Origin: an uncultured Nitrospiraceae bacterium
GTDB lineage: Bacteria; Nitrospirota; Thermodesulfovibrionia; Thermodesulfovibrionales; UBA6898
DNA length: 64,000 bases
Direction of reading: 5' to 3'
Assembly: GCA_963811165.1 (NCBI GenBank)
Contig: CAWEQH010000004.1
Coordinates: 480,001 to 544,000, forward strand
Below are positions 3 through 61,700 of the stretch, piece by piece; position 1 is the stretch's first letter; every line of letters starts with the position of its first letter. The position numbers were made by a program, and so were the translations under genes. The notes beneath the pieces are model-generated. The model made no database searches and was not told where the DNA came from. It was given only the letters and a program-made list of their open reading frames with translations.

Positions 3-821
3 GAAAATTATGGATGGAATATCATGGAGGCCTCTCATTGTTATCTTAGTCCATCATGCAGTTCCGCCGGCCTGGTACTTCCGGTTGCCGAATACGATCA
101 TACCACCGGAGATTGTTCGATCATAGGAGGAATGATTTACCGGGGCCTGAAGTACCCGGGGTTGCATGGGGTCTATCTCTACGGAGATGAATGCAGCGGC
201 CGGATCAGGGGTCTAAAGAAGAATGGAGGATCATCTCAAAATACCATCCTGTTGGATTCTCCCTTTGTCATTACCACCTTCGGCGAGGACGAAACCGGCA
301 GCCTGTATCTTGCGGATTACACATCAGGGACGATATACAGGGTCGTTGAGGCTATTTCCGGTATCCCTGCTCCTACGGTGCAGGAGACCTTCGCCTTTCC
401 TTCAGCCGATTCTCCCGTGGTGAGCCTGGACCTTGCGCAATTGAACCCATTTGGTTTCGGTCCTGTTGCTTCGGGTGGGGATATGCTTCAGTTCCAGGTG
501 GCACTGGCCCAATTTACCGCGCCTGTTGATTTGTATGCTGCGTATTCGGTATCAACCGATCCGGCTAATATTTTCCTGATGAAATCCGACCTTACCTTTC
601 AGGCCGTCTCATTCCAGGACGTCCAGCAGGTTCTCTCCGGAGTGGCCGTGGCAGGTATCGATCCCTGGATGAAAAATGTGACCGGCCCCATTGATGTCAA
701 CCCGCTCACTCTTTCCGTCACAAAACTTTCTCCGGGCATATACACCGTATATCTGCTGGTTACACCCTCGGGCAGGCTGGATTCACATTACCTCGGAAAG
801 GCATCTTTTGTTGTTCCCTAG
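3..821 (+). CDS. PQQ-dependent sugar dehydrogenase (glucose/sorbosone dehydrogenase family), 5' partial, with a C-terminal ~150-aa unknown domain
   Basis: Open frame from nt 3 (ENYGWNIMEA). Has GSDH motifs NYGW, YDH..GDCSIIGG.IYRG, YLYGD.CSGRI and ITTFGEDETG.LYLADY. C-terminal domain (~363-818) is shared with the genes at 1328-2047 and 58798-61980. Confidence 0.85.
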   Translation, partial: ENYGWNIMEASHCYLSPSCSSAGLVLPVAEYDHTTGDCSIIGGMIYRGLKYPGLHGVYLYGDECSGRIRGLKKNGGSSQNTILLDSPFVITTFGEDETGSLYLADYTSGTIYRVVEAISGIPAPTVQETFAFPSADSPVVSLDLAQLNPFGFGPVASGGDMLQFQVALAQFTAPVDLYAAYSVSTDPANIFLMKSDLTFQAVSFQDVQQVLSGVAVAGIDPWMKNVTGPIDVNPLTLSVTKLSPGIYTVYLLVTPSGRLDSHYLGKASFVVP

Positions 822-877
822 CAGGAGCATTCAATAATTAAAGTGCGGTCCAATCAGCGGGAACGAGCACGGCCGGT

Positions 878-1222
878 TCAGAAGCCGAGGGGTTCCCATT
901 TTCCAAACATGTTCACTTCGTCCCCGGGGTTCGGAAGCCCTGCAATCTTCCAGGCAATGACAGGCTCTATAAACTTTGCAATCACACAGTCTTTCGGCTG
1001 GCCGACATTCTTGCAGACGAAGCGCAGGATGGGAAAGAAATTGTATTCCTTATAGTACTGGCGCATGAATTTCAGGATGTCCATCTTGTCACCGGTCAAT
1101 TCTCCTGCTCCCTCTCTTTCGGCCAATGCACGGGCGACTGTTTCATTCCAATCCTCGTAATTTACGAGATATCCGTCATCGTCCAGATCGATCTTTATCC
1201 CTGAATATTCGATTACCGGCAT
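878..1222 (-). CDS. TusE/DsrC/DsvC-family sulfur relay-like protein lacking the C-terminal cysteines
   Basis: Motifs LDDDGYL...DWNE.VA..LA..EG..ELT...MDIL.FMR.YY and KIAGLP.P. ATG at 1222 is preceded by GGAGGAG. Confidence 0.85.
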   Translation of the reverse strand: MPVIEYSGIKIDLDDDGYLVNYEDWNETVARALAEREGAGELTGDKMDILKFMRQYYKEYNFFPILRFVCKNVGQPKDCVIAKFIEPVIAWKIAGLPNPGDEVNMFGKWEPLGF

Positions 1223-1327
1223 TCTGCATCCTCCTCCATCAATGAGACTGCAAATAGTGTGGCCCACCGCGATGCGTCGCCCCGGAAGAAAGACGCGGGG
1301 CGGCGCATCACGGAGAGTTCTTTTCTT

Positions 1328-2047
1328 TTATTCTACAGGATCGGGAACGATGAAATATGTGACCCAGCGGTAGAACCGATCAAAATTATTGTCTGCCGGA
1401 CTTGTCCTTGTCACATTAAGGACGAGAACATAAAGACCCGGAGGGATATCCTGCAGGTCCGTGGGGCCCAGAAGGGTATCGGTGACCCCGAGCACATTGG
1501 TTTTCCATGGGGTGAGTCTCTTCAACCTTTTCCTCGGCTCCGGATGGTAGCGATTGGACCCATGGCCATTGTCGGCGGACTGAACGGTAGGTTCAGAGGC
1601 CAATTCATCCTGGAGCGAAGTGATCTGATTGAAGATGTTTACGAAAAATATGTCCGCAGCGTCAAATGACGCCGCGAAGTAGCCGAACGACACGTCAACA
1701 GGCTCTTCAAACGGCCCAATGTCTACCGCTACTTCCAGAGAATTACCGCCACTGGCAACACTGCCTACCCCGATCGGCTTGGCTTTAGCCGGGTTGCAGC
1801 TTACAACAGGTTCTTCAACAGGAGTATAGGTGAATACACGCTTGCCGGTAGGCAGAGGCATAGTGCACGGCGGGGGCGCCGTAACGGTTTCGGTCACGGC
1901 CATAAAGTTCTGGACACCTCTTTGATTGAAATACTCATAGACGAGCTGATCGCCCGCACCCCCTGGATTGGCATACGCCTGTGCGGCCCCGAAAATACAG
2001 ATACCGATAACAAGAAATAATAATGCCGCGAAGCTTCTTTTACACAT
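1328..2047 (-). CDS. Secreted hypothetical protein consisting mainly of the shared ~150-aa unknown domain
   Basis: Sec signal peptide (..AQAYA) and RBS AGGAGG. Contains PIGVGSVASGGNSL..V....F..PVD, PWK.NV and PPGLY motifs. Confidence 0.8.
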   Translation of the reverse strand: MCKRSFAALLFLVIGICIFGAAQAYANPGGAGDQLVYEYFNQRGVQNFMAVTETVTAPPPCTMPLPTGKRVFTYTPVEEPVVSCNPAKAKPIGVGSVASGGNSLEVAVDIGPFEEPVDVSFGYFAASFDAADIFFVNIFNQITSLQDELASEPTVQSADNGHGSNRYHPEPRKRLKRLTPWKTNVLGVTDTLLGPTDLQDIPPGLYVLVLNVTRTSPADNNFDRFYRWVTYFIVPDPVE

Positions 2048-2387
2048 ACCGCCTCCTACTTTTATGGAATTATCTCCCGGTGACCCGGTTTGATGTCAAG
2101 TGCGTATCTTGCCGTATCGATGCGGACTGATCACCTCCTTCGCATTTTCTTCTGGATGAGGTCCCTCACAGACTCTTATACCACATCCAAAGCGCAATAA
2201 ATCATTAACTTTTTTTCATAATAGGTGTTCTGTGTTTATAGTCGTTAACGGCATGAATTGAGGATATCAAACGGCGGGATCCCGGTAGGTGATGAGGATC
2301 ACAATATAAATAAGTTTCAACAGAATCTTTCTCCTACGTTTACCACGGTGCTGAAATTTTCTGCGGAATTATTTCAAAAATGCGGCA

Positions 2388-2501
2388 TTATCTGAGCCCC
2401 GTATCGATAGAGATATCCACGGTGGTTGTCTTGCCGGACTCGATCACGACCGTCTTAGGCACGTCGGCACTCCTGTCGATCCCTATGTGGTTAATATCGT
2501 C
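2388..2501 (-). pseudogene. 3' remnant of a gene ending ...VDISIDTGLR*
   Basis: Protein-like 37-codon frame DDINHIGIDRSADVPKTVVIESGKTTTVDISIDTGLR*, with an in-frame TAG directly upstream and no convincing start. Confidence 0.5.
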
Positions 2502-2678
2502 CTATTGTAGCAAAAGAGATACTCTTGCACTATGGCCCCTTTGCACTTTCGGACTGTTCTGGCTTATCATATTTTTGTTACGGGAGTAAGGGCGAAGAAA
2601 TTGTATCGGGGAATCTATGGGGCATGGACCGGGGCAGAGAGAGGAATCGATATTGCCTTGCCCTCGTTACGGCAGCGC

Positions 2679-3155
2679 ATGAATGAAGACGCGACATATA
2701 AATTCGTAAACGATTTTTTCTATTTCGTTGTATGGCCTGATGAAAGCAGGGGCCGGGATGTTTTGATATGCTGTTCGGGGGTCAATCTGGACCGGTTTGC
2801 GCCCTTGACCAGGGGCCGGCATGGGTTGGCAGTAAGCCCCTCGATGAGGGGGCTTCAAAATACAAGGATCGCAATCAGCAGCATGGTGCTCGAAAAAGGG
2901 GCGAGACCGAAGTTTATCCGGGGAAGGGACTGCGCAGGCATCGCTCCTATAGAGGAGTCATGGTATACCGACCTTCTCCTTATAGAGAATGCTCCCGAGT
3001 CCCTTTGCGATGAAATAATCAGATGCGGGGTCGCCGCCCTTATCGCGTCGATCTTCAGGGCCTGCAGGATCCCGTTTCTGCTGCCCGAACCTCTCCCTGC
3101 GCCTGATGAACTTCAAAGGCTCCTCGAGGAGCAGTGCAGGATACACGCAAGATAG
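2679..3155 (+). CDS. Hypothetical protein
   Basis: Protein-like ORF of ~158 aa. Start is uncertain (ATG 2679 or TTG 2658). No family recognised. Confidence 0.6.
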   Translation: MNEDATYKFVNDFFYFVVWPDESRGRDVLICCSGVNLDRFAPLTRGRHGLAVSPSMRGLQNTRIAISSMVLEKGARPKFIRGRDCAGIAPIEESWYTDLLLIENAPESLCDEIIRCGVAALIASIFRACRIPFLLPEPLPAPDELQRLLEEQCRIHAR

Positions 3156-3271
3156 GCTGTTTTCTATGCGGGGCTTTGCCCCGTACCCCAGTTACCCTTC
3201 TTGCGTGTCCAAGAAGCGTAACCGCAAGAAGGTCAATATTGCCGGACTTCACCCCTTCAGGGAGAACTTCG

Positions 3272-3568
3272 CTATTGAAACCTGGCCCCGCACTTTCTGC
3301 AACCGCGTTGGTAAATATTGCTGCCGAGATATTTATTACATGACGGGCATCTCCAGTTGGCAGCGGTGAATCCCATGAATGACGCGATGACAATGGCCTG
3401 CATCGCAAAGATGGCGCCCTTCGATATGTTTCCGAATAGGTCGGACCGGTGGTGTATCATGGCAAGTAAAACGATAAGCAGAAGCGCTACTGCTATAGCA
3501 AGGAGCTGACGGTCCTGACGCAATTTAAAATTCGCGACGGTCTGTTTAGGGTCTCTTTTTGGCGCCAA
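3272..3568 (-). CDS. Small membrane protein with C-terminal zinc-ribbon-like CxxC...CxxC
   Basis: Two hydrophobic helices followed by WRCPSCNKYLG...CRKCGARF. TTG start follows GGAGA. Confidence 0.7.
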   Translation of the reverse strand: MAPKRDPKQTVANFKLRQDRQLLAIAVALLLIVLLAMIHHRSDLFGNISKGAIFAMQAIVIASFMGFTAANWRCPSCNKYLGSNIYQRGCRKCGARFQ

Positions 3569-3684
3569 TGGAATTTCTCCGGTAGATATTATACCGGCAG
3601 AGTGCAGTTTTTCAAAAATCGTGCATAGCCGACCTTGCATACTGGGTTAGTGACCGCATTACCGGGGATGTCCCGTATGATCAA

Positions 3685-4332
3685 TTATCCTTTGGCACTG
3701 GGCGCCGAAAGACGGGCCTCGTCCTCTGAACGCCGTGCCCGTGAAATTTCCCCGCGCATCCGCAGCACTCTCGTTGCATACGCGGGATCTCCGCCTGCAT
3801 AACGGCTGAGGGCCGTTCTGAGATTGTTCGTCCTTGCCAGATACCTGCCAAGCACGTAGATGCCGGAGTTTATATTACTGGATATCGTATAGAGATCGTC
3901 CTGTTGGCTCACGATCCCTTTCGTTTTGAGTTCCTCAAGCCAGACATCGGGCATTATCCCCATCAGTCCTATTGCGCCTTTTTCGCTTTCCACGTGAGGG
4001 TTGAAGTTGGACTCAACAAGACAGATTGCAAGGATCAGGTCCGCGTTAGCGCTGTTCATGGCAACGCTATAGATCTTCGAAAGGACCTGTTCAGGCATTT
4101 CGGAGTGCTCTTTCATCCATTGCAGGATGACCGCCTCCGTCGCCTCTTTCACCTGCGCGCCGTCGGGGTTTTGAGAAACCTCATGAGGGGCATCCACCCG
4201 GACTGCGGGCGCGGTCGCCGTATATGCCAAAGCGAGACCGGCTGTCGCAACCAGCCCCAAAATAAGGTATTGCGCCAATGATACCTGCCTATTCCTAAGA
4301 TCCCTTAATTTTCCTATTACTTTTTCGAACAT
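3685..4332 (-). CDS. Lytic transglycosylase (SLT domain), membrane-anchored
   Basis: Motifs VESNFNP (catalytic Glu), GAIGLMGIM, NI..G..VL..Y and AL..Y.GG. N-terminal TM helix. RBS AAGGAGGT. Confidence 0.9.
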   Translation of the reverse strand: MFEKVIGKLRDLRNRQVSLAQYLILGLVATAGLALAYTATAPAVRVDAPHEVSQNPDGAQVKEATEAVILQWMKEHSEMPEQVLSKIYSVAMNSANADLILAICLVESNFNPHVESEKGAIGLMGIMPDVWLEELKTKGIVSQQDDLYTISSNINSGIYVLGRYLARTNNLRTALSRYAGGDPAYATRVLRMRGEISRARRSEDEARLSAPSAKG

Positions 4333-4497
4333 AGACACCTCCTTAAAACCAGGCCCCGAGCCAGTTACCATGGAAAGTAACGCTTTGAAAGTTGTCCAAT
4401 ATAGAGTTCCTGTTATTTTCGCCACAGTTTTCTCGATTGACTGGAAGTAGCTTGATGAGCTGGTTTGACTTTATGGGAGTTTTAAATAGTCGTAGGT

Positions 4498-4528
4498 ATA
4501 TTACAGCACATACGGGGTATCTTGTCAA
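4498..4528 (-). promoter_or_regulatory. Putative sigma70 promoter of the SLT gene
   Basis: TTGACA-N17-TGTAAT (or N19-TAATAT) on the minus strand. Confidence 0.5.
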
Positions 4529-4774
4529 CTCTTTGAACAAAAAAAATTGAACCAAAAATGTTGAACCAAAAAAAATAGAAAAAAATAGAACGAAGAGACC
4601 GTTTCTAAATTTTTTTTAATCAGTTGTTAATCGTTTTTTAATAATGAGGCATTATAATGATGCGTATACCCTTCCTTTTGCCCCGGTCCCCCCCGGGGTT
4701 TTTTTTGCGAAAAAGTCGGCAGCGTACCAAAAAGTCTGAAACTCCGGGAATCCGAAGTATGGTATAGTATGAAT

Positions 4775-4867
4775 ATGAAGACAGTAATGCTCACCGGTTT
4801 TATTTTAATCGTCGCGTATATCTACGCGATGGTATATTTCAGGATGGCGTACAGACGACTGCTCTGA
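4775..4867 (+). CDS. Putative 30-aa single-pass membrane microprotein (leaderless)
   Basis: MKTVMLTGFILIVAYIYAMVYFRMAYRRLL. Extended -10 TGgTATAGT lies 6 nt before the ATG. Confidence 0.45.
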   Translation: MKTVMLTGFILIVAYIYAMVYFRMAYRRLL

Positions 4868-5145
4868 GGAGGGGGCATCTCCTCCGTGAGGGGAAAACTG
4901 ACCGCCCGCATCGAAAAAAAAGGGCTCAAGGTGCCGGCATGGCTTAAGGGAAAGTCCGTGTCTTGCAGCCGGTGATTCAATAATTAGCAATAATTACATA
5001 ATACTGAGACACTTCTTTTGTATGATTTTTCCCCCGTCTTATCATCGCCTTGCGTCCTGGGAAAATCCGGAGGCATCCGCACTAGTATGAGGACACGCTC
5101 TCATTGTGAATATTAATTATTTCTGATACAATTTTCAGACTCCCC

Positions 5146-5874
5146 ATGAAACGTACGCTGCTTGTGATACTGCTTCTTCTTCCGGTTGCGGCCTTTGCTG
5201 CTTCGAAGGACCCCGGTCCGCCATCCGTGACCGTGCGCTATTACGGCAACTTCAAAAAAATGATCCGGGAGAACTATGTGGAGGGTGTTGTCGAGCTGGA
5301 CCGGGCGCTGTCCGGCCCCCACGTATATGCGCTCGGTATCGTCAAGAATGCCGAAGGAGAAATTATGGTCCTTGACGGCGAAGTCTGGGTGAACTACGGA
5401 AAAGACGGCATCAACAAGACCACCAGCCAGATAAAAAAGGGGGAAAAAGCCTCCCTCCTTATCACTGCCGGCGTTGAAAAGTGGCAGACTATCGTTGTCC
5501 CTGCCGATATGTCGGAAAATGAGCTTCATGCGTTTGTCGTGGACCAGGCAAGGAAGTCCGGGCTGAACGTAAAGGCGCCGTTCCCTTTCCTGATTGAAGG
5601 CAAAATTAGAAAATTGGTCTGGGACGTTCTGGACGGGGCTGATACCGACATGGCGAGGAAAAGTAACCAGCTTTTTTTGAGAAAACTTGTCGGGTACAGG
5701 GATGAGGCGCCGGTTGTTCTTCTGGGCTTTTATCCTGCGGAGCTGCAGAGCGAATTCGACTATCCGGGCGAATTGTGGCACATCCATGTGTTATTCATGG
5801 ACGACGGCAATACGGGGCACCTCAATGCGTTTTCGGTAGTCAAGGGCTCTAAACTCGAAATACCCGCCAGGTAA
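5146..5874 (+). CDS. Secreted alpha-acetolactate decarboxylase-like Zn protein
   Basis: Signal peptide (..VAAFA). Motifs ALG....EGEI.VLDG, PFPF.IEG, LLGFY and WHIH....GH. Confidence 0.7.
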   Translation: MKRTLLVILLLLPVAAFAASKDPGPPSVTVRYYGNFKKMIRENYVEGVVELDRALSGPHVYALGIVKNAEGEIMVLDGEVWVNYGKDGINKTTSQIKKGEKASLLITAGVEKWQTIVVPADMSENELHAFVVDQARKSGLNVKAPFPFLIEGKIRKLVWDVLDGADTDMARKSNQLFLRKLVGYRDEAPVVLLGFYPAELQSEFDYPGELWHIHVLFMDDGNTGHLNAFSVVKGSKLEIPAR

Positions 5875-5933
5875 TAAAAAGTGCGTAAACGCCTTTCAGA
5901 TTTCCCAAGACCCAAAACTCAGGAAGCTCCAGA

Positions 5934-8535
5934 CTAGTATAGTATGAGGTTCTCGGCGGTGACCGCCAAAGAGTCCCTGCCGATCGTCACGGACCCGTGG
6001 ATGATCGAGTATGACGTCTGACTGCCGAACTCGCAATTCCAGCCGCCGCTCAGCGTGACCGCGATAGGGCGATTGAGATCCAATATCTCGGTCAGAGTTG
6101 TTGCGAGGAGCTGGATGGTATCATCAGGATCATGAGCATTGGCATAGGCGTCCGTAAGGCCCCCAACCGTAGCATATGATGTACCGTTGTTTACATTCTT
6201 TGCATAGTTACCTGGGCAGGTCGTATAACTCGCCGTGCAAGTCTTAACGCCATTCATCGTGACACCTGCCGAGGGGTTTGAGCCGGAACAGTTTCCTCCC
6301 CATGAATTAAATATATAGTCGCTGTTCGGGATGGCCAACAACCCTGCCGAGGTATCTGAATTATACCAGCATCCCAAAGAGCAATCAGGACTTACAGCAC
6401 CACCAGTCGGCGCAGGCACAGTCAACTGATACTGCGTCGTAAAGTTTGCCGTATACGTTCCGTCGGCTGCAGGCGAAATAGAGTGGCTCTGAGCCCCGCC
6501 GTCACTCCAGGACGAATAAATATACTGAGTCCCTGGGCCTCCGCTTTGGGGCGATGAGACCGCGATCGTATGGCCCGCGCCCGGGTTCCAGACATACATA
6601 TACGGCGCAACAGCATCACCCTCATCCAACGTAAAATGCAGGCCCGAAGGGGAAGTGACAATATTTATCCGCACAGAAAGAGTGGCGGTCGCGACAGCCC
6701 CAGTTGAGACATTTCCGACAGCGTCATACGCGCAAACACGGTAGTAATAAGTCATCCCGTTTGTGAGTCCTGTATCGGTCTTTGAGGTAGCACTGCCGAC
6801 ATAGACCTGTGTTCCGCTTGCGCACTGGGTGGCCGGAGTTCCCACTGTACTTCTTACGACTTTATACGTATTTGTTGGGTTAAGACCACCGCTGTCTGAT
6901 GCAGCGGTCCAACTCAAAAAGACCTGCCCATTGTCCGGCGTTGGCGTAAGTATTCCGTCTGCCGGAGGGGTTGTATCGCCCCCGGCAAACGCCTTGATGC
7001 AGACGTTTGTGTTTGAATCATATGAAAGTGTTATGTCTGACCAGCTTGTGCCACTACTGCTTATGAAACTCTGCCCGGCGCTGGCAGTGGCACCTGTACT
7101 ATAGCCGTCCCAAGGGTATTCCATTGGGATAGGCCAGTTGTACCCCGGCGTCGTGAGTTTTACCACAACAGAGAAGCTCTGGCCGTCCGTAACAGAGACA
7201 GGGGAGCTTAATGTAACTGTATGGTAACCTGGCATTGCCATCGTGCCTGTATTTGTAGAGCCTAGCGGGCCGCTTCTTGGGGCCCCGCCAGAGACATTTG
7301 AATAGACGTATATCTCGTACGGAGAATTCGGTGATGCCACATAGAAACTTACCGCAGTCAGCTGCTCGGTTGCGGCTGCAGTAAAGATATTGGCAAACCA
7401 TGGTGTTGTGCTTCCGTAGCCAATGCCGCTCATCCAGCCGAGCGGATCATACTGATATAACGCGTATAGTTGGTAGTCGATTGGGCTCCGTTAAAGACAT
7501 AGTTACTCTCCTTGCCCAATTGCGAGTCATCATAGTACGAGATATAAAAATATCCGCCGTTTACACCCCATGCTGTCCCCCAACTGTTTTTGATGATAAA
7601 GGCGCCATTGCCTGGCGGAGTAGGAGAAAAGTTGACTGAAGCTGTAGTTATCGTCCCACCCACAATATCTACCGCGTGGTTGCAGTACTGCGCCCGGAAT
7701 AATAATACGTCGTACAGGTGCCTGTGTGGTTGCTCATATGAGGTAGCCGTAGCCTCGCGGACCGGTCCAGAACAGGAAGTCATCGACGCCCCATAAGTCA
7801 TCACTGCCTGTTTGATGTTATCATTATCCGTGGATACTTCCCCTCGGCGGGATGATAAGGACCTCCTGCAGATGTTTTTGCAGAGTCGTCGAGACAGCGG
7901 CGTAAACACCGGTGGGGGAGGAAATGAAGCGTATAAGGATCATGCGGTTTCATTGATAGGTCCACTCTAAAGCCAGGATGCTCCCCAGCGCGCAAGATAT
8001 GCGATAGACATGTCCCCATTTCCGCCTTCACACGCGCAGCCAATCAAATCCATGAGTGTATGTTTCAGATTATATCTCTGAAAAGTCCCATGTTCCGGTT
8101 CCGCAGTAGGAAGGTCGGACTCCAGAGAGCCCATCGCTCCAAATGCCCAGCAATCGCCACAGCTAATTGGTTCTCACTGCCGTGACCTTGCCAGGGTGCG
8201 GAGATCATAACTCGCCGGCAGAGTGCAGCGGGCTCCCATAGAATGGCCCTGTGTGAATCTGCCGGAAAGATGGACTGCCCGGTAAGGTGCGACAGGTCAA
8301 GGGGAGAGGGTATATAGCCGAGGGCGTATCCGTCGGAGGTAACGTTTGGAATGCTTAAGCGTGGCACGCTCTTCAAATTCATATAATCGACGAATTTCGG
8401 GTTTAAAGGGGCCATTACAGGAATTTCCTGGTCCTGTGCGGACACCGGTATGCTTGTGAAAAGCATGAGACCGCACAATAGCAATACAGTTAGGACGATG
8501 TCCGTCAAGACCCTGTCTTTTCTGCAATAAATCAT
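5934..8535 (-). pseudogene. Secreted C1A (papain-like) cysteine protease with lectin-like, FN3 and InlB-B-like repeat domains; multiple frameshifts at ~7430-8250
   Basis: Signal peptide and LGYIPSP propeptide. LPASYDLR, CGDCWAF (CWAF at 8141-8152), CEGGN, NHAV.IVG and IIKNSWG are spread over different frames. Intact C-terminal frame 5934-7433 has AN.FTA, YHTV.L, NVCIKAF and YYYRVCAYD. Confidence 0.8.
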
Positions 8536-8790
8536 CTGTTCTTTCGTTACCTCATCGCGATATGGGCTGCTGACAGTGAAAAAATGACATCGGCATACAT
8601 ACGTAGAGGATATACTAGCACGTTCGATGCCTGAAAATCATACTTCAGAAAATCAGGAATTACCGAGACTCTTATAAAAAGGAAGGGTCGGGGATGACAA
8701 AAAATGTTAATCCTTTCATAAGGGAAGCGTTATTTGCGGCAATAACCGGCTCACCCTTTTTTATGAAAAAAGAAAAGTTTTAGGCATTAC

Positions 8791-9906: not shown

Positions 9907-9989
9907 TTCTGTGTCCCGATTTCTTGTCTTTTTATAAAGGCGCATCCGGTTTACCATTCACTTTTCACTATTTCACTATTTACTGTTTG

Positions 9990-10997: not shown

Positions 10998-11175
10998 TTT
11001 CCCGGGACTTGTAACACAGACGAAAAGAAGTGGACTTCCGTCATGATTGGCCCTGAATTATTATAATACGCGCAATATTCCCTGACAATGTTTTAATAGG
11101 AGTTGCTCAGAAGCACCACAGCCGCGGGTCCGGGTCGATGCGCCGGCGGAAATTGCAAGCCCGGCCATCAAAGGC

Positions 11176-13722: not shown

Positions 13723-13792
13723 CGAAAATCCAAATGAAGGTGAATCGTTGCCTTATTTAAAAAAAGTGCTGCGGCTTTGAAACTGCTGCCCT

Positions 13793-50738: not shown

Positions 50739-50741
50739 GGT

Positions 50742-51767: not shown

Positions 51768-51783
51768 CTGTTTCCTCCTTGTA

Positions 51784-51885
51784 AGTGTCAGTGACTAGTG
51801 TCAGTGTCAGCGGGCAGTGTCAGTTTATGAATAAAATCGTTTGAGTCCTTTGGGTCCTTGCCGGCACACTGACACTAGACACTGA
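51784..51885. repeat. Short AGTGTC/GACACT repeats forming an imperfect inverted repeat between hisC and aroF
   Basis: gtgtcagtgactagtgtcagtgtcag ... cactgacactagacactga. Confidence 0.55.
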
Positions 51886-52948
51886 TTGCTGTTTTTAGCG
51901 CCTCGATGAACCTTCTGTTTTCCTCCGGAAGGCCGATAGTCACCCTGAGTGCGTTCGGTCCCATCGGTCTTACGATGACGCCCATTTTCAGAAGTTTTTC
52001 GTAAAGGGCGACGGCCCCCTTGACAGGCATGTATACAAAGTTCGCCTCCGTAGGGACAAAAGAAATTCCGAGCACACCCAGCTCGCGGGAGAGGTACGCC
52101 TTCCCGTCCTCGTTTACCTGGCGTGAGCGGCTGACATGTGCCTTATCCGTAAGGGCGGCGATCCCCGCCTTTTGAGCTATCGTGCTTGTATTGAAAGGGG
52201 CCCTCAGCCTGTTCATGTCGGTCAGGATCTCTTTCCTGGCGATACCGTAGCCAAGCCTGAGTCCGGCAAGACCGTATATCTTCGAAAAGGTCCTCAGTAT
52301 GAGGATGTTCTTTTCGGACCTGAGGTATTTCATGCTGTCCGCATAATCAGGGTCGGCGACGTACTCATAGTAGGCCTCGTCCATGACGACAAGGACATCA
52401 TCCGGCACCTTCCTCATCATCATCTCGAATTCGTCTTTCTTGTTGATGGTCCCGGTCGGGTTGTTCGGGTTGGCGATGAAGATCATCTTCGTAAGAGGGG
52501 TAATGGCGTCTGCCATCGCAGAGAGATCGTGGGTGTAATTAGTGAGAGGGACCTGGACAGATTTTCCGCCTACCGACTGGACGGCCATGAAATATACGAC
52601 GAAAGAAGGCGTTGCCATGACCGCCTCGTCGCCGTCTTTCATGAACGTCTTTGCGGCGAGGTCGAGGAGTTCATTCGAGCCGTTGCCGAGGATTATCTCT
52701 TCATCGCTGACCCCCAGCTCTTTCGAAAGGGCACTCTTAAGATAGAACCCCGAGCCGTCGGGGTAACGGTTGATGTCGGCAAAGCCTTCGCCGATCGCCT
52801 TTAGCGCGGCAGGGGAAGGACCCACCGGGTTTTCGTTAGAAGCGAGCTTGATCGAGTTTGATATGCCGAGTTCCCGCTCGAGTTCCTCGATAGGTTTGCC
52901 GGGAACGTAGGGCTGGATTCCCAGGACGTATTCGGGCGGCCGGATCAT
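51875..52948 (-). CDS. hisC: Histidinol-phosphate aminotransferase
   Basis: KLASNEN, YPD, GNGS.E, NPNNPTG, DEAY and RTFSK.YGLAGLR motifs. Confidence 0.97.
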   Translation of the reverse strand: MIRPPEYVLGIQPYVPGKPIEELERELGISNSIKLASNENPVGPSPAALKAIGEGFADINRYPDGSGFYLKSALSKELGVSDEEIILGNGSNELLDLAAKTFMKDGDEAVMATPSFVVYFMAVQSVGGKSVQVPLTNYTHDLSAMADAITPLTKMIFIANPNNPTGTINKKDEFEMMMRKVPDDVLVVMDEAYYEYVADPDYADSMKYLRSEKNILILRTFSKIYGLAGLRLGYGIARKEILTDMNRLRAPFNTSTIAQKAGIAALTDKAHVSRSRQVNEDGKAYLSRELGVLGISFVPTEANFVYMPVKGAVALYEKLLKMGVIVRPMGPNALRVTIGLPEENRRFIEALKTAISV

Positions 52949-54018
52949 TGCATATTCCCCTGCGGGTAGGAGCCGAGGACCTTGAGATACAGGCAATTGT
53001 CCGTCAACCCGTCGATGGCTTTTTTTATCTTCTTGTCTTCCACGTGGCCCTCCATGTCAACGAAAAATATATACTCCCACGCCTTCCGCTTTGACGGCCT
53101 GGACTCGATCTTGGTGAGATTGATCTTCGCCCGCTTAAAAGGCAATAAGACGTCGTAGAGGGACCCGGGCTTGTGTTTGATTGAAAACATAATGGATGTC
53201 TTGTCGTTGCCGGTCCTGTGGGGGAATTCCTTTGAGATGACCAGGAACCGCGTGATATTGCGGCGGCTGTCCTGGATGTCCCGTTCAATTATGTTGAGGT
53301 CATACATGCGCGCGGCGATCTCGCTGGCTATAGCGGCCGACGCCGGGTCTTTGGAGGCCAGTTCTGCAGCCTTCGCCGTGCTGGTGGATTCGGCGATCGG
53401 GACACCCGGCATGTTCGCCTCGAGCCAGCCCCTGCATTGTGCCAGTCCCTGCGGATGCGAATATACCTTTTTTATCTTCGAACGGTTGGTCTGCTTCGAA
53501 AGCAGATTGTGGGACACCTCGATGATGATCTCTGCGACGACCTGCAGATCGGAATCCATGAACATGTCAAGCGTATGGCTTACGACGCCTTCGTTTGAGT
53601 TCTCGATAGGTACGACGCCGTACTCCGCCTTTCGGGACTCGACGTTTTCGAATACCTTCTTTATGCTGTCTACGGGCACAAAGGCGGCGGACGAACCGAA
53701 GTGGCGCAGGGCCGCCAGGTGAGTGAAGGTGCCCAGAGGTCCGAGGCAGGACACTTTGAGTGGTTCCTCAAGCGCAAGCGAGGCAGCGAGTATCTCCCGG
53801 TAAATTGCCTTTAACGCGTCATTGGGGAAAGGGCCCTTGTTATTGTTTGCGAGCCTCTGAAGTATCTGGCGTTCGCGGTCGGGTTTATAGAAGGTGGATT
53901 TCTGATGTCGCTTGATCCTGCCGACATCAACCACGAACTCGGCGCGCCTGTTGAGGAGCTTGATTATCTCATCGTCGGTCTTGTCGATACTGCTTCTGAG
54001 TTTTTTGAGTTCTTTCAT
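52945..54018 (-). CDS. pheA: Chorismate mutase/prephenate dehydratase
   Basis: N-terminal CM domain. LGP.GTF, PIENS.EG, SHPQ..AQC, N.TRF and ESRP motifs. Confidence 0.97.
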   Translation of the reverse strand: MKELKKLRSSIDKTDDEIIKLLNRRAEFVVDVGRIKRHQKSTFYKPDRERQILQRLANNNKGPFPNDALKAIYREILAASLALEEPLKVSCLGPLGTFTHLAALRHFGSSAAFVPVDSIKKVFENVESRKAEYGVVPIENSNEGVVSHTLDMFMDSDLQVVAEIIIEVSHNLLSKQTNRSKIKKVYSHPQGLAQCRGWLEANMPGVPIAESTSTAKAAELASKDPASAAIASEIAARMYDLNIIERDIQDSRRNITRFLVISKEFPHRTGNDKTSIMFSIKHKPGSLYDVLLPFKRAKINLTKIESRPSKRKAWEYIFFVDMEGHVEDKKIKKAIDGLTDNCLYLKVLGSYPQGNMQ

Positions 54019-54233
54019 ATGCAATTGTTATTGAGCACCATGCGAAAAAAGGCAAGCTCTCAGTCGGAAAATAATAATAATTCATTTTTTCTTATTTTTT
54101 CAAGAGGTTGGAGGGTACAGGCGTGATGAAAGGGAAAGAGTCGCACGGGGGCCCTTTTTTCGGCATACTCTCAATGGGAAATCCCTAGTCGGACCTCTTT
54201 AGCTTTAGGGGCCAATAATGGTATATTTTCCAA

Positions 54234-55472
54234 ATGGACAAAATGCGGCCCGACAGGGAACCGTTTCATTACGGATGGATAATTGCAGGCACCGGAACGC
54301 TTTGTATCATGGCATGTCTGGGTTTCGGCCGTTTCGCATTAGGCATGCTTCTTCCCTCGATGGCCACGACACTCCGCCTTAGCTACTCGCAGATGGGCTT
54401 TATCAGTACAGTAAATTTCCTGGGCTACCTGGTGGCGGTATTGGCCAGCGGTTTCTGGGTTGCCAGGATAGGATCGCGAAGATTGATTTTTATCTCGCTG
54501 CTTGTCGTCGGCGTCTCGATGTCCCTTATCAGTCAGGCAAAGAGTTTCCCTTACGTGCTCGTTCTCTACGGGCTCACGGGGCTTGGAAGCGGCGCTACGA
54601 ATGTGCCGGTGATGGGGCTGGTTTCCCCATGGTTCTCCCGAACCAAAAGGGGGAGGGCGGCGGGATTTATCGTGATCGGCAGCGGATTTGCCATCATCAT
54701 CTCCGGTAAACTCATCCCCTTCATTAACAAGCTCTCCGGAGCTGAAGGATGGAGGGTGAGCTGGCTTGTACTAGGCGGCGCCGTCATCCTCATCGCGTTC
54801 TTAAGTTATCTGCTGCTCAGAGACAGGCCCGAAGAAAAGGGGCTGAAGCCGCTTGGGGGAGAAAGCACTGCTTCTCCGTCTACGGTCGCCCAAAGGGGGA
54901 AACAGAATATCTATGCCAGCGGAATTATGTATTATCTGGGGACGATATACTTCCTCTTCGGATATACCTACGTGATATATGCGACCTTTATCGTAACCTC
55001 CCTGGTAAAGGAGAGGGGGTTTTCAGAATCCGTTGCAGGAGATTTCTGGGCCTGGGTGGGGTTTCTGAGCCTTTTTTCCGGCCCTGTATTCGGGACGCTC
55101 TCGGACCGACTGAGCAGAAAGGCGGGACTGATCATCGTGTTTTCACTTCAGATGCTTTCATATCTCCTTGCGGCGTCGGGGCTGCCCGGGGTCTTTCTGT
55201 ATCTGTCGATTGGCTTTTACGGCATTGTCGCCTGGAGCATTCCCTCTATTATGGCTGCGGCGGTCGGCGATTATGTGGGGGCGCGGAAGGCGGCCTCCGC
55301 ATTTGGTCTGGTCACCTTCATCTTCGGTTTCGGCCAGATTTCGGGGCCCGCGGTAGCCGGGTTGCTGGCCGAAAAGACCGGGAGTTTTTCGAGCAGTTTT
55401 TATATGGCCGCATTCTTTGCGGGCGTGGCCATCCTCTTTACCGCCTTCCTGAAAAAACCGAAAGCCGCTTAA
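54234..55472 (+). CDS. MFS transporter (YbfB/YjiJ-like)
   Basis: GFGRFA.G.LLP.M, N.LGYL, Y.IY.TF and GQI.GP motifs; about 12 TMs. Confidence 0.92.
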   Translation: MDKMRPDREPFHYGWIIAGTGTLCIMACLGFGRFALGMLLPSMATTLRLSYSQMGFISTVNFLGYLVAVLASGFWVARIGSRRLIFISLLVVGVSMSLISQAKSFPYVLVLYGLTGLGSGATNVPVMGLVSPWFSRTKRGRAAGFIVIGSGFAIIISGKLIPFINKLSGAEGWRVSWLVLGGAVILIAFLSYLLLRDRPEEKGLKPLGGESTASPSTVAQRGKQNIYASGIMYYLGTIYFLFGYTYVIYATFIVTSLVKERGFSESVAGDFWAWVGFLSLFSGPVFGTLSDRLSRKAGLIIVFSLQMLSYLLAASGLPGVFLYLSIGFYGIVAWSIPSIMAAAVGDYVGARKAASAFGLVTFIFGFGQISGPAVAGLLAEKTGSFSSSFYMAAFFAGVAILFTAFLKKPKAA

Positions 55473-55699
55473 AGGGACGGCGCCGATCGTGCAAAGGTCT
55501 GGGAAATCAGCCCTAGTTGTCACTATATTTGACCTCACAGAAAATGTCTGATAGAGCCGCGTGCGACTTGCACCGACAACATCACACCGACACTATATCT
55601 CAGAGCGTGACAATTACCGATCACAACCTGCATTTTTCTGAAGAAGATGAATTACAGAGTACATGGCTCTATCACAGCGTTACGCCGCTCATGGCACAA

Positions 55700-56260
55700 T
55701 TACTCAATAATCAGAGAACCGACTGACTCAGCCTGCCCGCCGCGTACTGGCCAAACGTTGAAGAGGCCCGCCTTACTGCCGTAATACGGTGTGCCATCCC
55801 CTGTATCGACGACCCACGCGTTGATCGCATCGTTCGCCTTCGTAGTAGACGTCCAGTTGCCGTACGACTGCACACTGATGAAGACATTCCCCTCCGTCCA
55901 CTTCGCCGTGCCTGCGTCGTTCGTCAACGACGGATAAGTGAAGCCGTATCTGTTAGCCTGGGTGACCATCGCCATCAACTCGACCTTAGTAGGCAGCCGC
56001 CAGTCCCCTTCACGTGAATTATCATATAAGTCGCACTCTTGGGGGGCAAGGCCCTTAACCCATGCCATGGCGTCATGCCAACTAAGATATGGCATGCAGT
56101 GTGCATTCTGGAGCCATATCAGGCCTGTCCTGCAATCGGTAACCGTTCCATCGGCATTGTTCACATACCTCACACTGTTGCATTCATCAGCATAGGCCCA
56201 AGTCCCGAACAACACCAAAACTAACGACAATACTATGATCCTTCCAACCTTCATACTCAT
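55700..56260 (-). CDS. Secreted DUF1566 (Lcl C-terminal, C-type lectin-like) protein
   Basis: Signal peptide. N.DGTVTD..TGL.W, W..A, DWRLPT..EL, WTST, AW.V and VWPVRGG motifs. Confidence 0.9.
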   Translation of the reverse strand: MSMKVGRIIVLSLVLVLFGTWAYADECNSVRYVNNADGTVTDCRTGLIWLQNAHCMPYLSWHDAMAWVKGLAPQECDLYDNSREGDWRLPTKVELMAMVTQANRYGFTYPSLTNDAGTAKWTEGNVFISVQSYGNWTSTTKANDAINAWVVDTGDGTPYYGSKAGLFNVWPVRGGQAESVGSLIIE

Positions 56261-56586
56261 CCCTCCCTCTGTCTGAAAAATTGGCCTTAAACCACGGCAG
56301 CGGTAACTTCGCAGATGGAAAGTGCTGATTGAGCAAACGACGTGCTTGAAATTTTGTTTTATCTCCTCCCCAGGTAGTTGCCGCAGTCTAGCAACAAACC
56401 AGTACAAAATACAATAAAAAAATCTTCCGATTCATTATTATTTCAATAAGTTTTGGCTGCGGTGCGGCATTTTTGAACATCCGATTGTTTCCGCTGGAAT
56501 ACCTCACCTCTGGCAAGAAATTGACAGTTTCGAGTACAGGAAGAAGTCGAAAAGTTTATTGAGCCTCAGCTAAACAGGCTCGCCTT

Positions 56587-57171
56587 TTATGTTTTGTCCT
56601 TGCCAAGTATACGCTCAATCCGGCGATCAGGGACCAGCCACATCAGCGCGACGAACACATAGATACTGCCCGCAATCCAAGGCTCATAAAATGCCGCCAG
56701 GATTGCAGTCCCATAGAGGACAGGTGACAGCTTTCCTTTGAGGTCACGACCGACCGCCTTCGCCAGTAGCGAGTCGTCGCCTTGGCTCGAAATAATGGTG
56801 TGCTGCAATACGAAATATGCAACTGCCGCCATAAGCAGAACGAAACCATAAAGCGCCATCGTTGCGGGAGCAAAATGATTCTCCCCCATCCAGCCTGTGA
56901 CGAACGGAAAAAGCGACAGCCAGAAGAGGAGGTGCAGGTTTGCCCACAAAACAGCCCCGGTCACATGTTGTGTGGTGTGCAACATGTGATGGTGATTGTT
57001 CCAGTAGATGGCCAGGTATACGAAGCTCAGCACGTAGCTCAGAAACACGGGCAGAAGCGGATTCAAAGCGGCAAAGTCAGCACCGTGCGGCACCTTCATT
57101 TCCAGTACCATGATGGTTATGATTATGGCGAGAACGCCGTCACTGAATGCTTCTAGTCTGTTTTTCCCCAT
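56587..57171 (-). CDS. TMEM175 (DUF1211) family K+ channel
   Basis: RLEAFSDGV.AI.IT.MVLE, SF......W..HH and LFW.SL.PF.T motifs. Confidence 0.95.
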   Translation of the reverse strand: MGKNRLEAFSDGVLAIIITIMVLEMKVPHGADFAALNPLLPVFLSYVLSFVYLAIYWNNHHHMLHTTQHVTGAVLWANLHLLFWLSLFPFVTGWMGENHFAPATMALYGFVLLMAAVAYFVLQHTIISSQGDDSLLAKAVGRDLKGKLSPVLYGTAILAAFYEPWIAGSIYVFVALMWLVPDRRIERILGKDKT

Positions 57172-57409
57172 AACCCTTTATCCGACCTTCCATCTTCCTT
57201 TCAATACCCTTAACATGGAATCGCCTGGTTGTCCAGCGGTGTTTGGCCGAGGTTTCAAATAAGGATAAGGGGAGCTCTCTGGGCAAAGGTCACAAACGAT
57301 TTACGTTGCAAATCCTGACTCCGCCAAAGCACATCAGAACGCTGTATTTCAGGAAGTAGTCGAAATTGGAACATGCTGTGTCAGGATGGTGAAGTCCTAC
57401 CTTTACAAC

Positions 57410-58438
57410 TCAGGCGTATTCAGCCAGGTCCCTGACGAGCCGCTCCGAATCTTCCCATCCCAGACAGGGGTCGGTGATCGACTTTCCGTACACGTTTTCA
57501 GAAATCTTTTGGGAGCCTTCGACGAGATAGCTTTCGATCATAAGGCCCTTTACCTTGTTCCTGAGAGTCTTGGAATGCTGCCGGCTCCTCATTACTTCTT
57601 TGGCGATCCTGGGCTGCTCGAAAAAGCGTTTGTTCGAATTTGCGTGGTTGGTGTCGACTATGATCGCGGGGAAGAGGAGGTTTCGTTTCTTATATGCTTC
57701 CGCCAGCCTTTTAAGGTCTTCATAGTGATAATTGGGAATATTGTACCCGTAGTGGTTTACGGCGCCCCTTAATATGCAGTGGGTGAGCGGATTGCCTGAT
57801 GTCTTTACCTCCCAGCCGTTATAGACAAAGACATGCGGCAGTTGGGAGGCCTGTACCGAATTGAGCATTACTTCGAGGTCCCCGCTTGTGGGGTTCTTCA
57901 TCCCCGACGGCACATCGAGTCCGCTTATGGTGAGCCGGTGGAGCTGGCTTTCGACCGACCTTGCGCCGATCGCAACATAGCTGAGGATGTCGGCAAGATA
58001 CGGATAGTTTCCCGGATAGAGCATTTCGTCGGCCGCAGTGAGATGAGACTCCTTCATTGCGCGGATATGCATCCTTCTGATTGCCTTCAACCCGTTGACC
58101 ATGTTTGGGGCCTCGGAGGGTTTGGGCTGGTGGGCCATGCCTTTATACCCTTCGCCGGTAGTCCGGGGCTTGTTGGTATAGATGCGGGGAATAAGGAGCA
58201 GCTTCTCCTTTACCTCTTCCTGGAGTTTGGCGAGCCTCGACACGTATTCGCAGACAGGGTCTTCATCGTCGGCAGAGCACGGGCCGATTATGACGAGGAA
58301 CTTGTCGCTTTCCCTCTTGAAAACCGATATGATCTCCTTGTCCCTCTTCTCTTTGACCTTTCGCAAATCTTCCGGCAGGGAGATCTTCTCCAGGATTTCC
58401 TTTACGCTGGGAATTTCCCGCACATATTGAAAGCTCAT
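57410..58438 (-). CDS. DAHP synthase class I-alpha (AroF/G/H type)
   Basis: GPCS, KPRTTG.GYKG, IGARS.E.Q.HR, KNPT.G, D.NH.NS, G.MIES and SITD.C.GW motifs. Confidence 0.96.
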   Translation of the reverse strand: MSFQYVREIPSVKEILEKISLPEDLRKVKEKRDKEIISVFKRESDKFLVIIGPCSADDEDPVCEYVSRLAKLQEEVKEKLLLIPRIYTNKPRTTGEGYKGMAHQPKPSEAPNMVNGLKAIRRMHIRAMKESHLTAADEMLYPGNYPYLADILSYVAIGARSVESQLHRLTISGLDVPSGMKNPTSGDLEVMLNSVQASQLPHVFVYNGWEVKTSGNPLTHCILRGAVNHYGYNIPNYHYEDLKRLAEAYKKRNLLFPAIIVDTNHANSNKRFFEQPRIAKEVMRSRQHSKTLRNKVKGLMIESYLVEGSQKISENVYGKSITDPCLGWEDSERLVRDLAEYA

Positions 58439-58561
58439 ATTCTTTCCCTCGATTCTTTCAAGACTAAATTTACGACTTCATTTTAATATATTTTAAAAAC
58501 ATTCTGCTATCTATCTGAGGCATCCCGAAGGCTGCTGGAGATTCTCCCATTATGTTTTTTC

Positions 58562-58768
58562 TTGACAGAAAGTAAAAAGCGGAGTAAAATTGTCCTGTAT
58601 ATGTTTTTGGGTGATCTGACCTCGTGAAAACCATTAAAAAAACTTAATTTGACATTGGGGGATCTATTTTATAAGCTAAATCATTGAAAAAGTATTTCAA
58701 TTGCTCAGCCCGCTTCAAAGAAGATTCAAACAATAGATTTCGTAGTGGGGTTCCTGAAATTTCAGGAA
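58562..58768 (+). promoter_or_regulatory. Tandem sigma70 promoters and two palindromes upstream of the multiheme cytochrome
   Basis: TTGACA-N17-TAAAAT (58562-58590), TTGACA-N17-TAAGCT (58649-58677), ATTGAAA-N5-TTTCAAT (58683-58701) and perfect TTCCTGAAATTTCAGGAA (58751-58768). Confidence 0.7.
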
Positions 58769-58797
58769 GGAATATTAACTTTAAACAGGGAGGAAAA

Positions 58798-61700
58798 ATG
58801 AGGAGAAAAGTTCTCGTCACTTTACTTGTCACGGCTCTTATGGTTATGGGAGTCATGGGCATCACTAACGCATTAACGGCAACCGATGGGGCTGCCTTAT
58901 ATTCAACTGACTGTCAAATGTGTCACGGACCTTTGGGATCGTCTGCAGTCGCAGGAAGGAGCGCTGCTCAGATATCGGCTGCGATTGCGAATCCAGCTTT
59001 TCCGATGGCTGGTATGAGTACGCTTACGTCACTTACGGCTGATCAGGTTGCAGCTATCGCTGCTGCACTTGCACCTGCTCCAGCACCGACACCAGCACCG
59101 ACACCAGCACCGACACCAGCACCGACACCAGCACCGACACCAGCACCGACACCAGCACCGACACCAGCACCGACACCAGCACCGACACCAGCACCGACAC
59201 CAGCACCGACACCAGCACCGACACCAGCACCGACACCAGCACCGACACCAGCACCGACACCAGCACCGACACCAGCACCGACGCCGGTACCGACGCCGGT
59301 ACCGACATCACTCGTGCCTATGCCGCGTCCGGTGGGTCAGGTTGAATATGATAATCCCGGATCTGTCTTTCCTTCTATGAGCGCGGACCCTTCCCATGCG
59401 ATCCCGATTGGAGTCGGAACGGTCGCTCTCGGCGGAGATACGCTCAGCGTACAGGTCGGTCTTAACAAATTTAGCGGTCCGGTGGATGTATATGTGGGCT
59501 ATCGTACTTCAGCCGCTCCCGATAAAATCTCTGTGATAAAATCGGACTATACCGTTCAGGAATTTAATGTTTCGGACATAGATAATGCCGTGTTCGATGG
59601 AGCACCTGTGCCGTCAGGGTTTGAGGCATGGAAAACGGGGGTCACCGGACCGGTCAACGAAATCGTGTTGAACAGTCTGTCCATCACGGATATTGCAGCT
59701 GGTCAATACTCAGCTTATGTCTTGGTTACACCTGCAGGCGACTTCTCCCACTATTATCTATGGCAGACCGATTTTGCATCACCCCAGCATACAGAAGCTG
59801 CTCTTCCGCTGACTGCGCAGCCGCCGGTTGGTGAGCTGACATTCGGGTATTCTGCTCAGGCTTTCCCCGCGATAAATCCTGATCCTTCGCTTGCCGCGCC
59901 GATAAGTATCGGTCCGGCGGCATTGGGTGGGGACACGGTGAGCCTCCAGGTAAGCCTTGGTAAATTTGTCAGCCCGGTTGATATCTATGTGGCCTATGGA
60001 GTAGCGGCCGCACCTGACAAAATCTATCTCATGAAGTCGGATTACACTATCCAGGCGTTTTCTCTTAATGAGATATCCAATGCTATCTATCACGCAGGAC
60101 CAATGCCTAACGGGTTTGCACCCTGGAAACAAAACGTAACAGGACCGATAAACGAGATACTCCTGAACAACGTGCCGGTATCGCAGATTCCCGCAGGGTC
60201 GTACGCGCTTTATCTTATGGCTACGCCGGCAGGCAACCTTAGCAACAATACTATCTGGAGCACGGAGTTAAACGGCACTGGTTCGGACGGTGCGACCCTT
60301 TACTCTCAGAACTGCGCCGGATGTCACGGACCCCTTGCCGGCTCTACAAAGGCCGGGAGAACGGTCTCACAGATACGGGCCGCTATGAGCGCAAACCTGG
60401 GAGGAGTAATGGGCAGCCTTAACGGGCTTTCCGATTTTCAGTTACAGATGATTTCGGACGCCCTCACTCTGCCGACGCCTCCGCCTATGCCTTTGTCGCT
60501 TAAGACCACCGACGCTGCGACGCTTTATAATCAGAACTGTGCGCTTTGTCACGGTCCAAGTGATACGGCTTTCCCGGCGGGAGTTGCACAGAGCCAGGTG
60601 CAGGCGGCTATGAATTCGGTCCGCCAGATGCAGGGGGTTGGGCTCCTTCTTACACCCGATCAGGTGTCGGCCGTTGTAAATAAGATTGGTTCTCCCTCTG
60701 TTACGCCTACGCCGACACCTACACCGGGACCGACGCCTACACCGCCTCCGACTATGAATGGTGCGGCACTCTATGCGACTAACTGTTCGGGTTGTCACGG
60801 AGCGCTTGCAATGTCGGCAAAGAAAGGCCGGACTGCGGCGCAGATATCGGGAGCGATCAGTTCGGTAGGTGCGATGAGCGGGCTTAGCCTGACATCGGCG
60901 CAGATATCGGCCATCGCGTCTGCATTGGCAGGAACGACACCTATGCCTACACCGACACCTACACCGGGACCGACGCCTCCTCCGACGACAAACGGGGCGA
61001 CCCTTTATGCAAACAACTGTTCCGGTTGTCACGGGGCGCTTGCAACTTCGTCCAAGCGTGGACGCACCGCGGCGCAGATCACAAGCGCCATTAGTAGTGT
61101 AGGCCAGATGAGCGGGCTTAGCCTGACATCGGCGCAGATATCGGCTATCGCGTCTGCATTGGCAGGAACGACACCTATGCCTACACCGACACCTACACCG
61201 GGACCGACGCCTCCTCCGACGACAAACGGGGCGACTCTTTATGCGAACAACTGTTCCGGTTGTCACGGGGCGCTTGCAACTTCGTCCAAGCGTGGACGCA
61301 CCGCGGCGCAGATCACAAGCGCCATTAGTAGTGTAAGCCAGATGAGAGGGATTAGCCTGACATCGGCGCAGATATCGGCTATCGCTTCAGCGCTTAGTGG
61401 AACGACACCTACTCCTACACCGACACCTACACCTGGACCGACGCCTCCTCCGACGACAGACGGGGCGACCCTTTATGCGAACAACTGTTCCGGTTGTCAC
61501 GGAGCGCTTGCAACTTCGTCCAAACGTGGACGCACCGCGGCGCAGATCACAAGCGCCATTAGTAGTGTAAGCCAGATGAGAGGGATTAGCCTGACATCGG
61601 CGCAGATATCGGCTATCGCGTCTGCATTGGCAGGAACGACACCGACGCCTACACCTACACCTGGACCGACGAGCGGGGCCACTCTCTATGCGACCTACTG

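Follow-up and report, generated by a model that had tools for sequence, protein, structure and literature searches.

The window analysed here, a stretch of 64,000 nucleotides from an uncultured Nitrospiraceae bacterium of the order Thermodesulfovibrionales (GenBank assembly GCA_963811165.1, contig CAWEQH010000004.1, positions 480,001 to 544,000), encodes four copies of an unnamed module of ~145 amino acids, hereafter domain X. X is portable, it sits on exported hosts, it occurs to the near-exclusion of lipid and transmembrane (TM) anchors, and it is interchanged with SLH repeats. Comparison of the sequences makes it rather probable that X is a portable, non-covalent tether of Sec-exported proteins to the cell envelope, and this is the candidate role argued for below. 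The copies and their hosts are the following (G000 is the genome of the window, and C4, C8, C10 and so on are its contigs):

1 to 821, forward strand: 3' part of a GSDH/HHIP-like beta-propeller gene (PF07995, E 4e-40), which begins before the window, at G000 C4:479127
363 to 818, forward strand: X, C-terminal copy on the GSDH-like protein, of the subfamily with a short helical insert (profile envelope)
1328 to 2047, reverse strand: stand-alone exported X protein of 239 amino acids, with a cleavable signal peptide, ~35 conserved residues and X (open reading frame (ORF) and homologue comparison)
1343 to 1861, reverse strand: X copy with a long charged insert in its variable loop (profile envelope)
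58798 to 61980, forward strand: PgcA-like haem-string cytochrome of 1060 amino acids, with a cleavable signal, haem domain 1, a Pro/Ala-Pro/Thr linker, X-X and haem domains 2–8 (ORF, matches to PDB 8QJ6/8QJG)
59320 to 59784, forward strand: X, first tandem copy of the cytochrome (profile envelope)
59815 to 60276, forward strand: X, second tandem copy of the cytochrome (profile envelope; AlphaFold2 model, pLDDT 89)

An earlier note on this DNA had recognised four copies of one domain. All of them are in frame where it placed them and align end to end, with identities of 28–49% and pairwise phmmer scores of 46–172 bits (E 1e-13 to 1e-52, Z=1000). When the 1328–2047 copy was shuffled 1000 times and compared to copy C1, the best score was 11.4 bits, against 46.5 bits for the real pair. 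The four copies are thus confirmed as true homologues over their full length. No family match, failed alignment or cytoplasmic-type host turned up, any of which would have spoken against the role proposed in the note. One detail was only half right: the first copy does end its protein in FVVP, but the 1328–2047 protein continues for four residues beyond FIVP. A profile of the four copies retrieved five further full copies from the genome, giving nine in eight proteins, and iterating the search added no more. There are also a frameshifted cupredoxin-X remnant (C8:170277–170914) and a short fragment (C4:303949), and one X host (C8:133566) is frameshifted behind its signal peptide.

The absence of a named family, also noted earlier, is borne out. 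Pfam and NCBIfam scans of the window copies and of 61 family members gave only weak and inconsistent matches (Y_Y_Y in 3 of the 61), and sequence searches of the PDB found no family, the best matches (E 0.004–0.006) covering only 27–31 residues. Searches of the literature, supplements not included, listed no description of X; text queries do poorly on a domain that has no name. X is therefore treated here as an uncatalogued family with a specific, testable role.

Close homologues of X are labelled Thermodesulfovibrionales and Ca. Sulfobium. It is present in 56 of the 301 genomes of the order that were scanned, with 1 to 13 matches each, and in 35 of 53 genomes of its own family, while six families of the order have no match. 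A phylum-wide sample gave 6 positive genomes out of 251, and outside the order only one weak partial match. In a full scan 1,076 clusters at 50% identity match X, 887 of them at E <= 1e-10; one match is labelled Deltaproteobacteria and another a Euryarchaeota metagenome-assembled genome, so the range is probably wider. Searches of plasmids, phages and viral contigs returned no match.

Pfam scans of 60 and 77 X hosts revealed ~45 families, among them cytochromes, cupredoxins, CHRD, GSDH, DUF3443, peptidases of the S8, M10, C1, C39 and M23 types, propellers, Lcl, RHS, and fn3/BACON/PKD/InlB stalks. The earlier note had X shuffled onto exported redox proteins; the hosts are indeed unrelated and exported, but the redox emphasis was too narrow, most of them being proteases, propellers, adhesin-type and Ig-stalk proteins. 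My signal-peptide rule is passed by 98 of 150 representative hosts, and by eye many of the other 52 resemble truncated gene calls. Among complete hosts at the loci compared the figure is 47 of 57; in most of the remaining ten a signal can be made out by eye, and the others have the look of frameshifted genes. Within these 98, X lies at the C-terminus of 41 hosts, at the N-terminus of 35 and internally in 19, while 3 consist of no other domain. Such freedom of position is incompatible with a CTERM- or T9SS-like terminal tag that is cleaved off. Of 200 hosts, 198 lack a TM helix past residue 45, and a lipobox-like motif is seen in 2 of the 98 hosts with a signal, compared with 59 of 393 exported proteins encoded in the genome (p 1e-4, kin not being independent).

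The strongest indication of function comes from passengers that exist with and without X. The DUF3443 set comprised 38 ORFs from 31 matching genomes of the order, 34 of which could be classified once 4 truncated or broken ones had been dropped. Nineteen (18 by rule, 1 by eye) are lipoproteins with a lipobox and a Gly/Ser linker, to which no domain has been added. The other 15 have no lipobox, and their cleavable signal leads directly into a module: X in 8, SLH in 1 (G445; PF00395, E 6e-12), an ASH pair in 2, a second unnamed module in 1 and an unnamed repeat in 3. No protein has both lipobox and module (0/34), and none has neither (0/34). On the passenger tree, which is poorly resolved, the X forms fall at several places. 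The genomes compared are related, so p values overstate.

GSDH shows the same alternation, and a third passenger shows it less cleanly. Of the GSDH proteins in the family, whose N-termini were judged by eye, 6 are short forms with a signal-anchor-like or lipobox start and no added domain; those with a cleavable signal carry either a C-terminal X (intact in 3, broken in 1) or, in 4 cases, a different Ig-like domain, and one broken form is unclassified. Among 20 distinct ORFs of a beta-propeller passenger, 7 end at the propeller and are of lipoprotein type (lipobox seen in 5), and 8 have other added modules; the X-bearing propeller forms came solely from the representative set, not from these 20. 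X thus alternates with the lipobox, SLH and other modules on the same passengers, and it likely takes the place of the lipid anchor or SLH repeats found on sister proteins. The anchoring or display role proposed in the earlier note gains from these swaps, as it does from the depletion of lipoboxes and the near-absence of TM helices in the hosts; its analogy to a T9SS-CTD-like terminal sorting tag fails on the free position of X.

Several side observations were made in these alignments. The unnamed repeat in the DUF3443 anchor slot is a Tyr/Trp-rich tandem repeat with a Pro/Thr linker (family f3; N-terminal 200 amino acids of L118, L119 and L123) and has no Pfam match. In two other DUF3443 homologues (L133 and L127, from G272 and G338) the two halves appear to be in swapped order. 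In genus g8, X is replaced at the GSDH C-termini (L091–L093, L095) by an Ig-like domain, or by two, starting with PNGGE and having basic loops.

A possible course of events, in which all functional steps are comparative inference, is as follows. X hosts would cross the inner membrane by Sec, would fold and, where needed, take up haem in the periplasm, and would likely exit by the T2SS (type II secretion system). X would then bind a polymer made by the cell, most likely a surface glycan, so that the passenger would be held at the surface or in the matrix. On the window cytochrome, X-X may serve to moor a PgcA-like string, leaving a single haem to one side of it and seven to the other.

A number of results weigh against a tether. 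The signal-peptide and lipobox assignments rest on my own rules and not on SignalP. Clustering of 412 neighbours of X loci revealed no conserved gene that could be a candidate receptor. The T2SS marker GspG, detected in 53 of the 56 genomes of the order that have an X match and in 191 of the 245 that do not, is near-universal (244/301) and discriminates little. SLH is found in 4 of 56 X-positive versus 53 of 245 X-negative genomes, an exclusion that is only partial and is confounded by family. Five of the 20 propeller ORFs have a cleavable signal and no module, indicating that export without a module happens, and one host (P0068) carries both ASH and X. Finally, P0170 and the protein at G000 C8:92465 are 89% identical over 284 amino acids, after which one has X and the other IPT plus another domain; this swap fits a ligand-binding head on a stalk as well as it fits an anchor.

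The last observation keeps alive the possibility that X is an adhesin-type head, which would bind an external target (mineral, foreign polysaccharide or partner cell) and bring enzymes and cytochromes to their substrate as a carbohydrate-binding module does. X terminates Ig/InlB stalks that are free of catalytic domains (P0170, P0095), its rate of evolution slightly exceeds that of the passenger in 8 of 9 orthologue pairs, and its subfamilies are defined by a loop that tolerates large inserts, all of which would suit such a head. A single external ligand is nevertheless hard to square with ~45 unrelated host families, and such a head gives no reason to expect that all 8 DUF3443 proteins with X should have lost the lipobox. 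I regard this explanation as quite unlikely.

X could also be a folded tag by which the T2SS recognises proteins that it is to carry through the outer membrane, the passengers then being released. The fold of X is FnIII-like (see below), and there is precedent: in Pel3, one loop of its Fn3 domain is reported to be a key T2SS signal (PMC7949064), and another report describes a further export role for an FnIII domain (PMC9190976). The GspG count in X-positive genomes agrees with such a tag, and the lipobox-to-X swap could be an exchange of export routes, since PgcA is reported to need its lipobox to exit the periplasm (PMC10570954). The frequency of GspG in X-negative genomes tells against it, however, as does the fact that SLH, an anchor, fills the same DUF3443 slot. 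Tandem X copies occur as well, and some proteins consist of a signal and X only (L066, and open frames of 173–184 amino acids in G014, G263 and G398); these have no cargo, which argues against a pure export signal. On balance a role confined to export appears unlikely to me, and a tether to the envelope is the reading retained.

With regard to the envelope itself, the genome encodes two GspD secretins, GspG and a full T2SS operon. This operon (G000 C10:1127893–1149494) adjoins a cluster of multihaem cytochrome and porin-like genes, and the second GspD gene (C8:369943–372321) lies beside glycosyltransferase and polysaccharide-export genes, these roles being assigned by eye. An SLH profile search of the genome gave no match, and two genomes of the order with large SLH sets (18 and 22 matches) have no X match.

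The AlphaFold2 model of X, built for the second tandem copy, is confident (pLDDT 89, pTM 0.83). It predicts a nine-strand, FnIII/Ig-like beta-sandwich, preceded by a Pro/Gly-rich N-terminal arm of ~35 residues. Across 59 copies, conservation is highest at Pro, Gly, an FxGPVD turn, a Trp, a GxY motif and YxWxTxF. A single loop is variable, forming a short helix in the GSDH and cytochrome copies and a long charged insert in the stand-alone copy, and the subfamilies that share an insert cluster together on the tree. Foldseek searches of the PDB and viral libraries with the model returned nothing at E <= 0.001, and VIA-align returned generic Ig/FnIII matches only (best Z 6.0, rmsd 3.6, 96 aligned). 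SLH, cohesin and T9SS-CTD structures are not among the structural matches listed, which excludes none of them. In the ESM Atlas the nearest clusters are unnamed (0.94, 0.93, 0.91), and the best named one, a ceramidase C-terminal domain (0.78), is a lead only. A look-alike C-terminal domain in L155 did not align with X (hhalign probability 2%), and no superfamily is therefore claimed.

Such generic matches are what would be expected if X were an Ig-like spacer or stabiliser with no specific binding role. The conserved Pro, Gly and core aromatic residues could all be structural, and X copies are often broken or lost, which is also compatible with a spacer. A spacer would not be expected to lie mostly at a terminus (79 of 98 hosts, with the domain-only proteins), to stand alone or to exclude lipoboxes, making this explanation extremely unlikely.

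Conserved families of stand-alone X do exist, namely that of the window protein at 1328–2047, which has at least 27 close homologues of 227–280 amino acids, a small Gly/Met-rich family, and the signal-plus-X family. They raise the question of whether X is a protein-protein docking module, either cohesin/dockerin-like or lattice-forming, with the stand-alone proteins as hubs or coat subunits. The tandem pairs on cytochromes and Ig-stalk proteins would be consistent with this. No long scaffoldin of X repeats was seen, though, the listed hosts having at most two full copies; no cognate partner family recurs nearby, and 61 members show no cohesin or dockerin match in Pfam. Homodimer predictions scored 0.29 and 0.23 (mark 0.42), which is no evidence either way, and the tandem X-X model, built from 8 sequences with a low-confidence linker (pTM 0.55), is uninformative. 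Docking between proteins thus seems very unlikely as the role of X, and the tether reading is again the one carried forward.

Set against known systems, X would work much as SLH does. SLH is a known anchor and consists of a helical triplet of small repeats. Like SLH (PF00395), X is portable, is found at either end of exported proteins with no TM or lipid anchor, and occupies the same DUF3443 slot (G445). It differs in being a single beta-sandwich, and the window copies and 61 family members have no SLH profile match. With the T9SS CTD (TIGR04183) it shares being an Ig-like domain common to unrelated exported proteins, but X is about twice as long, is not restricted to the C-terminus and has no match to TIGR04183 or a Pfam equivalent; TIGR04183 matched neither this genome nor any control genome, in searches that did not include the T9SS machinery genes. 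The PEP-CTERM, GlyGly-CTERM and LPXTG signals are reported to be an optional suffix exchanged with other localisation modules among homologues (PMC3237569). X is likewise interchanged, yet it has neither a TM helix nor a basic tail, it is globular and folded, and it also occurs N-terminally; the clustering of neighbouring genes gave no candidate for a cognate processing enzyme such as those signals have. In its proposed working X resembles SLH, yet it fails membership of SLH, T9SS-CTD, CTERM and cohesin on the features tested.

An FnIII fold can bind the cell's own polysaccharide, as reported for the tandem FnIII matrix protein RbmA of Vibrio cholerae (PMC5605196). The X model matches RbmA with a Z of 5.5–5.6 (rmsd 3.5, 93 aligned), tied with unrelated Ig/FnIII structures. 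At 12% identity there is no evidence of homology, and RbmA, unlike the widely shuffled X with its many passengers, is dedicated to the matrix.

The window cytochrome illustrates how X may be used. Its gene likely starts at the ATG at 58798, behind a GGAGG at 58789–58793, and the following features accompany those listed above:

58562 to 58590, forward strand: sigma70-like promoter match upstream of the cytochrome gene, 11 of 12 positions (consensus match only)
59074 to 59286, forward strand: Pro-Ala/Pro-Thr repeat linker, residues 93–163 of the cytochrome (sequence)
60283 to 61860, forward strand: seven monohaem c domains, most with Pro/Thr linkers between them (CxxCH with a downstream Met, by eye)

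The protein had been called an octaheme cytochrome. It does have eight haems, but each sits in a monohaem class I domain of its own, and linkers of Pro/Thr or Pro/Ala string these eight domains together. Its signal region has no Cys and hence no lipobox, the first Cys being that of the haem motif at residue 39. The haem domains match domains I and II of PgcA from Geobacter sulfurreducens (PDB 8QJ6, E 2e-11; 8QJG, E 8e-9). The PgcA reports present it as an extracellular haem string with Pro/Thr linkers, a lipobox required for leaving the periplasm and a secretion domain that is cleaved (PMC11520253, PMC5732950, PMC10570954), and describe it only as loosely bound or released (PMC5732950). The two proteins thus share homologous monohaem domains, Pro/Thr linkers and a non-haem domain near the N-terminus. 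PgcA, however, has three haems, a lipobox and one cleaved 'secretion domain' (residues 58–252), while the window cytochrome has eight haems, lacks the lipobox and bears its two X domains behind haem 1. Homologous cytochromes that also carry X-X are found in G004, G005, G010 and G024; G003, of the same genus and with no X match, has a one-haem remnant alone at the syntenic site.

The GSDH-like protein, which starts with a hydrophobic signal and no lipobox, had been described as a PQQ/GSDH dehydrogenase. In sequence the HHIP propeller (E 3.5e-39) is nearer to it than are the soluble PQQ glucose dehydrogenases (best E 4e-21), so that PQQ activity is putative. A specific pairing of this protein with the cytochrome found no support: G004, G005 and G024 had no GSDH match, and the two are thus not an obligate pair.

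Other features of X loci are worth recording. An N-terminal monohaem domain with no consistent Pfam match recurs on many hosts (L004, L020, L031, L042, L051, L061; G000 C1:445880), often with a TSP3-like acidic motif and repeats rich in Cys after it. Large X-bearing Ig-stalk genes adjoin a gene for a MalT-like ATPase/regulator in four genomes (L033, L044, L053, L058; role by eye). The stand-alone X gene of G014 and the X-cytochrome genes of three other genomes adjoin pyrE, which is probably an insertion site. A DsrC-like gene (PF04358; 878–1267, reverse strand) lies between two X genes of the window, and also near GSDH-X in G002 and G010. An Rfam scan of the window gave no match.

X is not the only unnamed module in this genome. 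A second one, of ~90 amino acids with a GGY/F core, ends 14 of its exported proteins (for example at 5937–6212 of the window, reverse strand) and has no NCBIfam match. It is present in 50 of the 301 genomes of the order and co-occurs with X among them (26 of 56 X-positive versus 24 of 245 X-negative), but not one of 296 partly overlapping X-host sequences carries it. In G487 it takes the N-terminal DUF3443 slot (L122:2833–3084); it is probably another anchor or export tag. A third, of two LHIP/LHVP repeats, follows beta-propellers whose other homologues are lipoproteins (G000 C4:295650, C10:1166025, C10:1026653; L154, L156, L160, L163) and is on no X host. In the window a papain-family fragment (7430–7909) abuts a lectin-like/fn3/InlB gene (5934–7433); the whole (5934–7909, reverse strand) is probably one frameshifted exported protease gene.

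A bolder extension, which I consider doubtful, is that X is the docking tag of an undescribed surface-display system of Thermodesulfovibrionales and some deltaproteobacteria. Proteins exported by the T2SS, including an eight-haem PgcA-like wire, would be moored lipid-free on a dedicated polymer or a coat of stand-alone X, and X would be one of several interchangeable unnamed anchors with which a layer of redox proteins and enzymes is built outside the cell.

By what means diderm anaerobes retain soluble cytochromes and enzymes that carry no lipid on the cell surface is largely an open question. X offers one small domain for its study, with natural pairs that have and lack it on the same passenger, and the DUF3443 anchor slot points to further unnamed anchors. 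Its hosts are dozens of unrelated exported proteins in little-studied sulfur-cycling bacteria, and X would flag surface proteins across more than 1,000 sequence clusters of a lineage that is common in the environment and for the most part uncultured.

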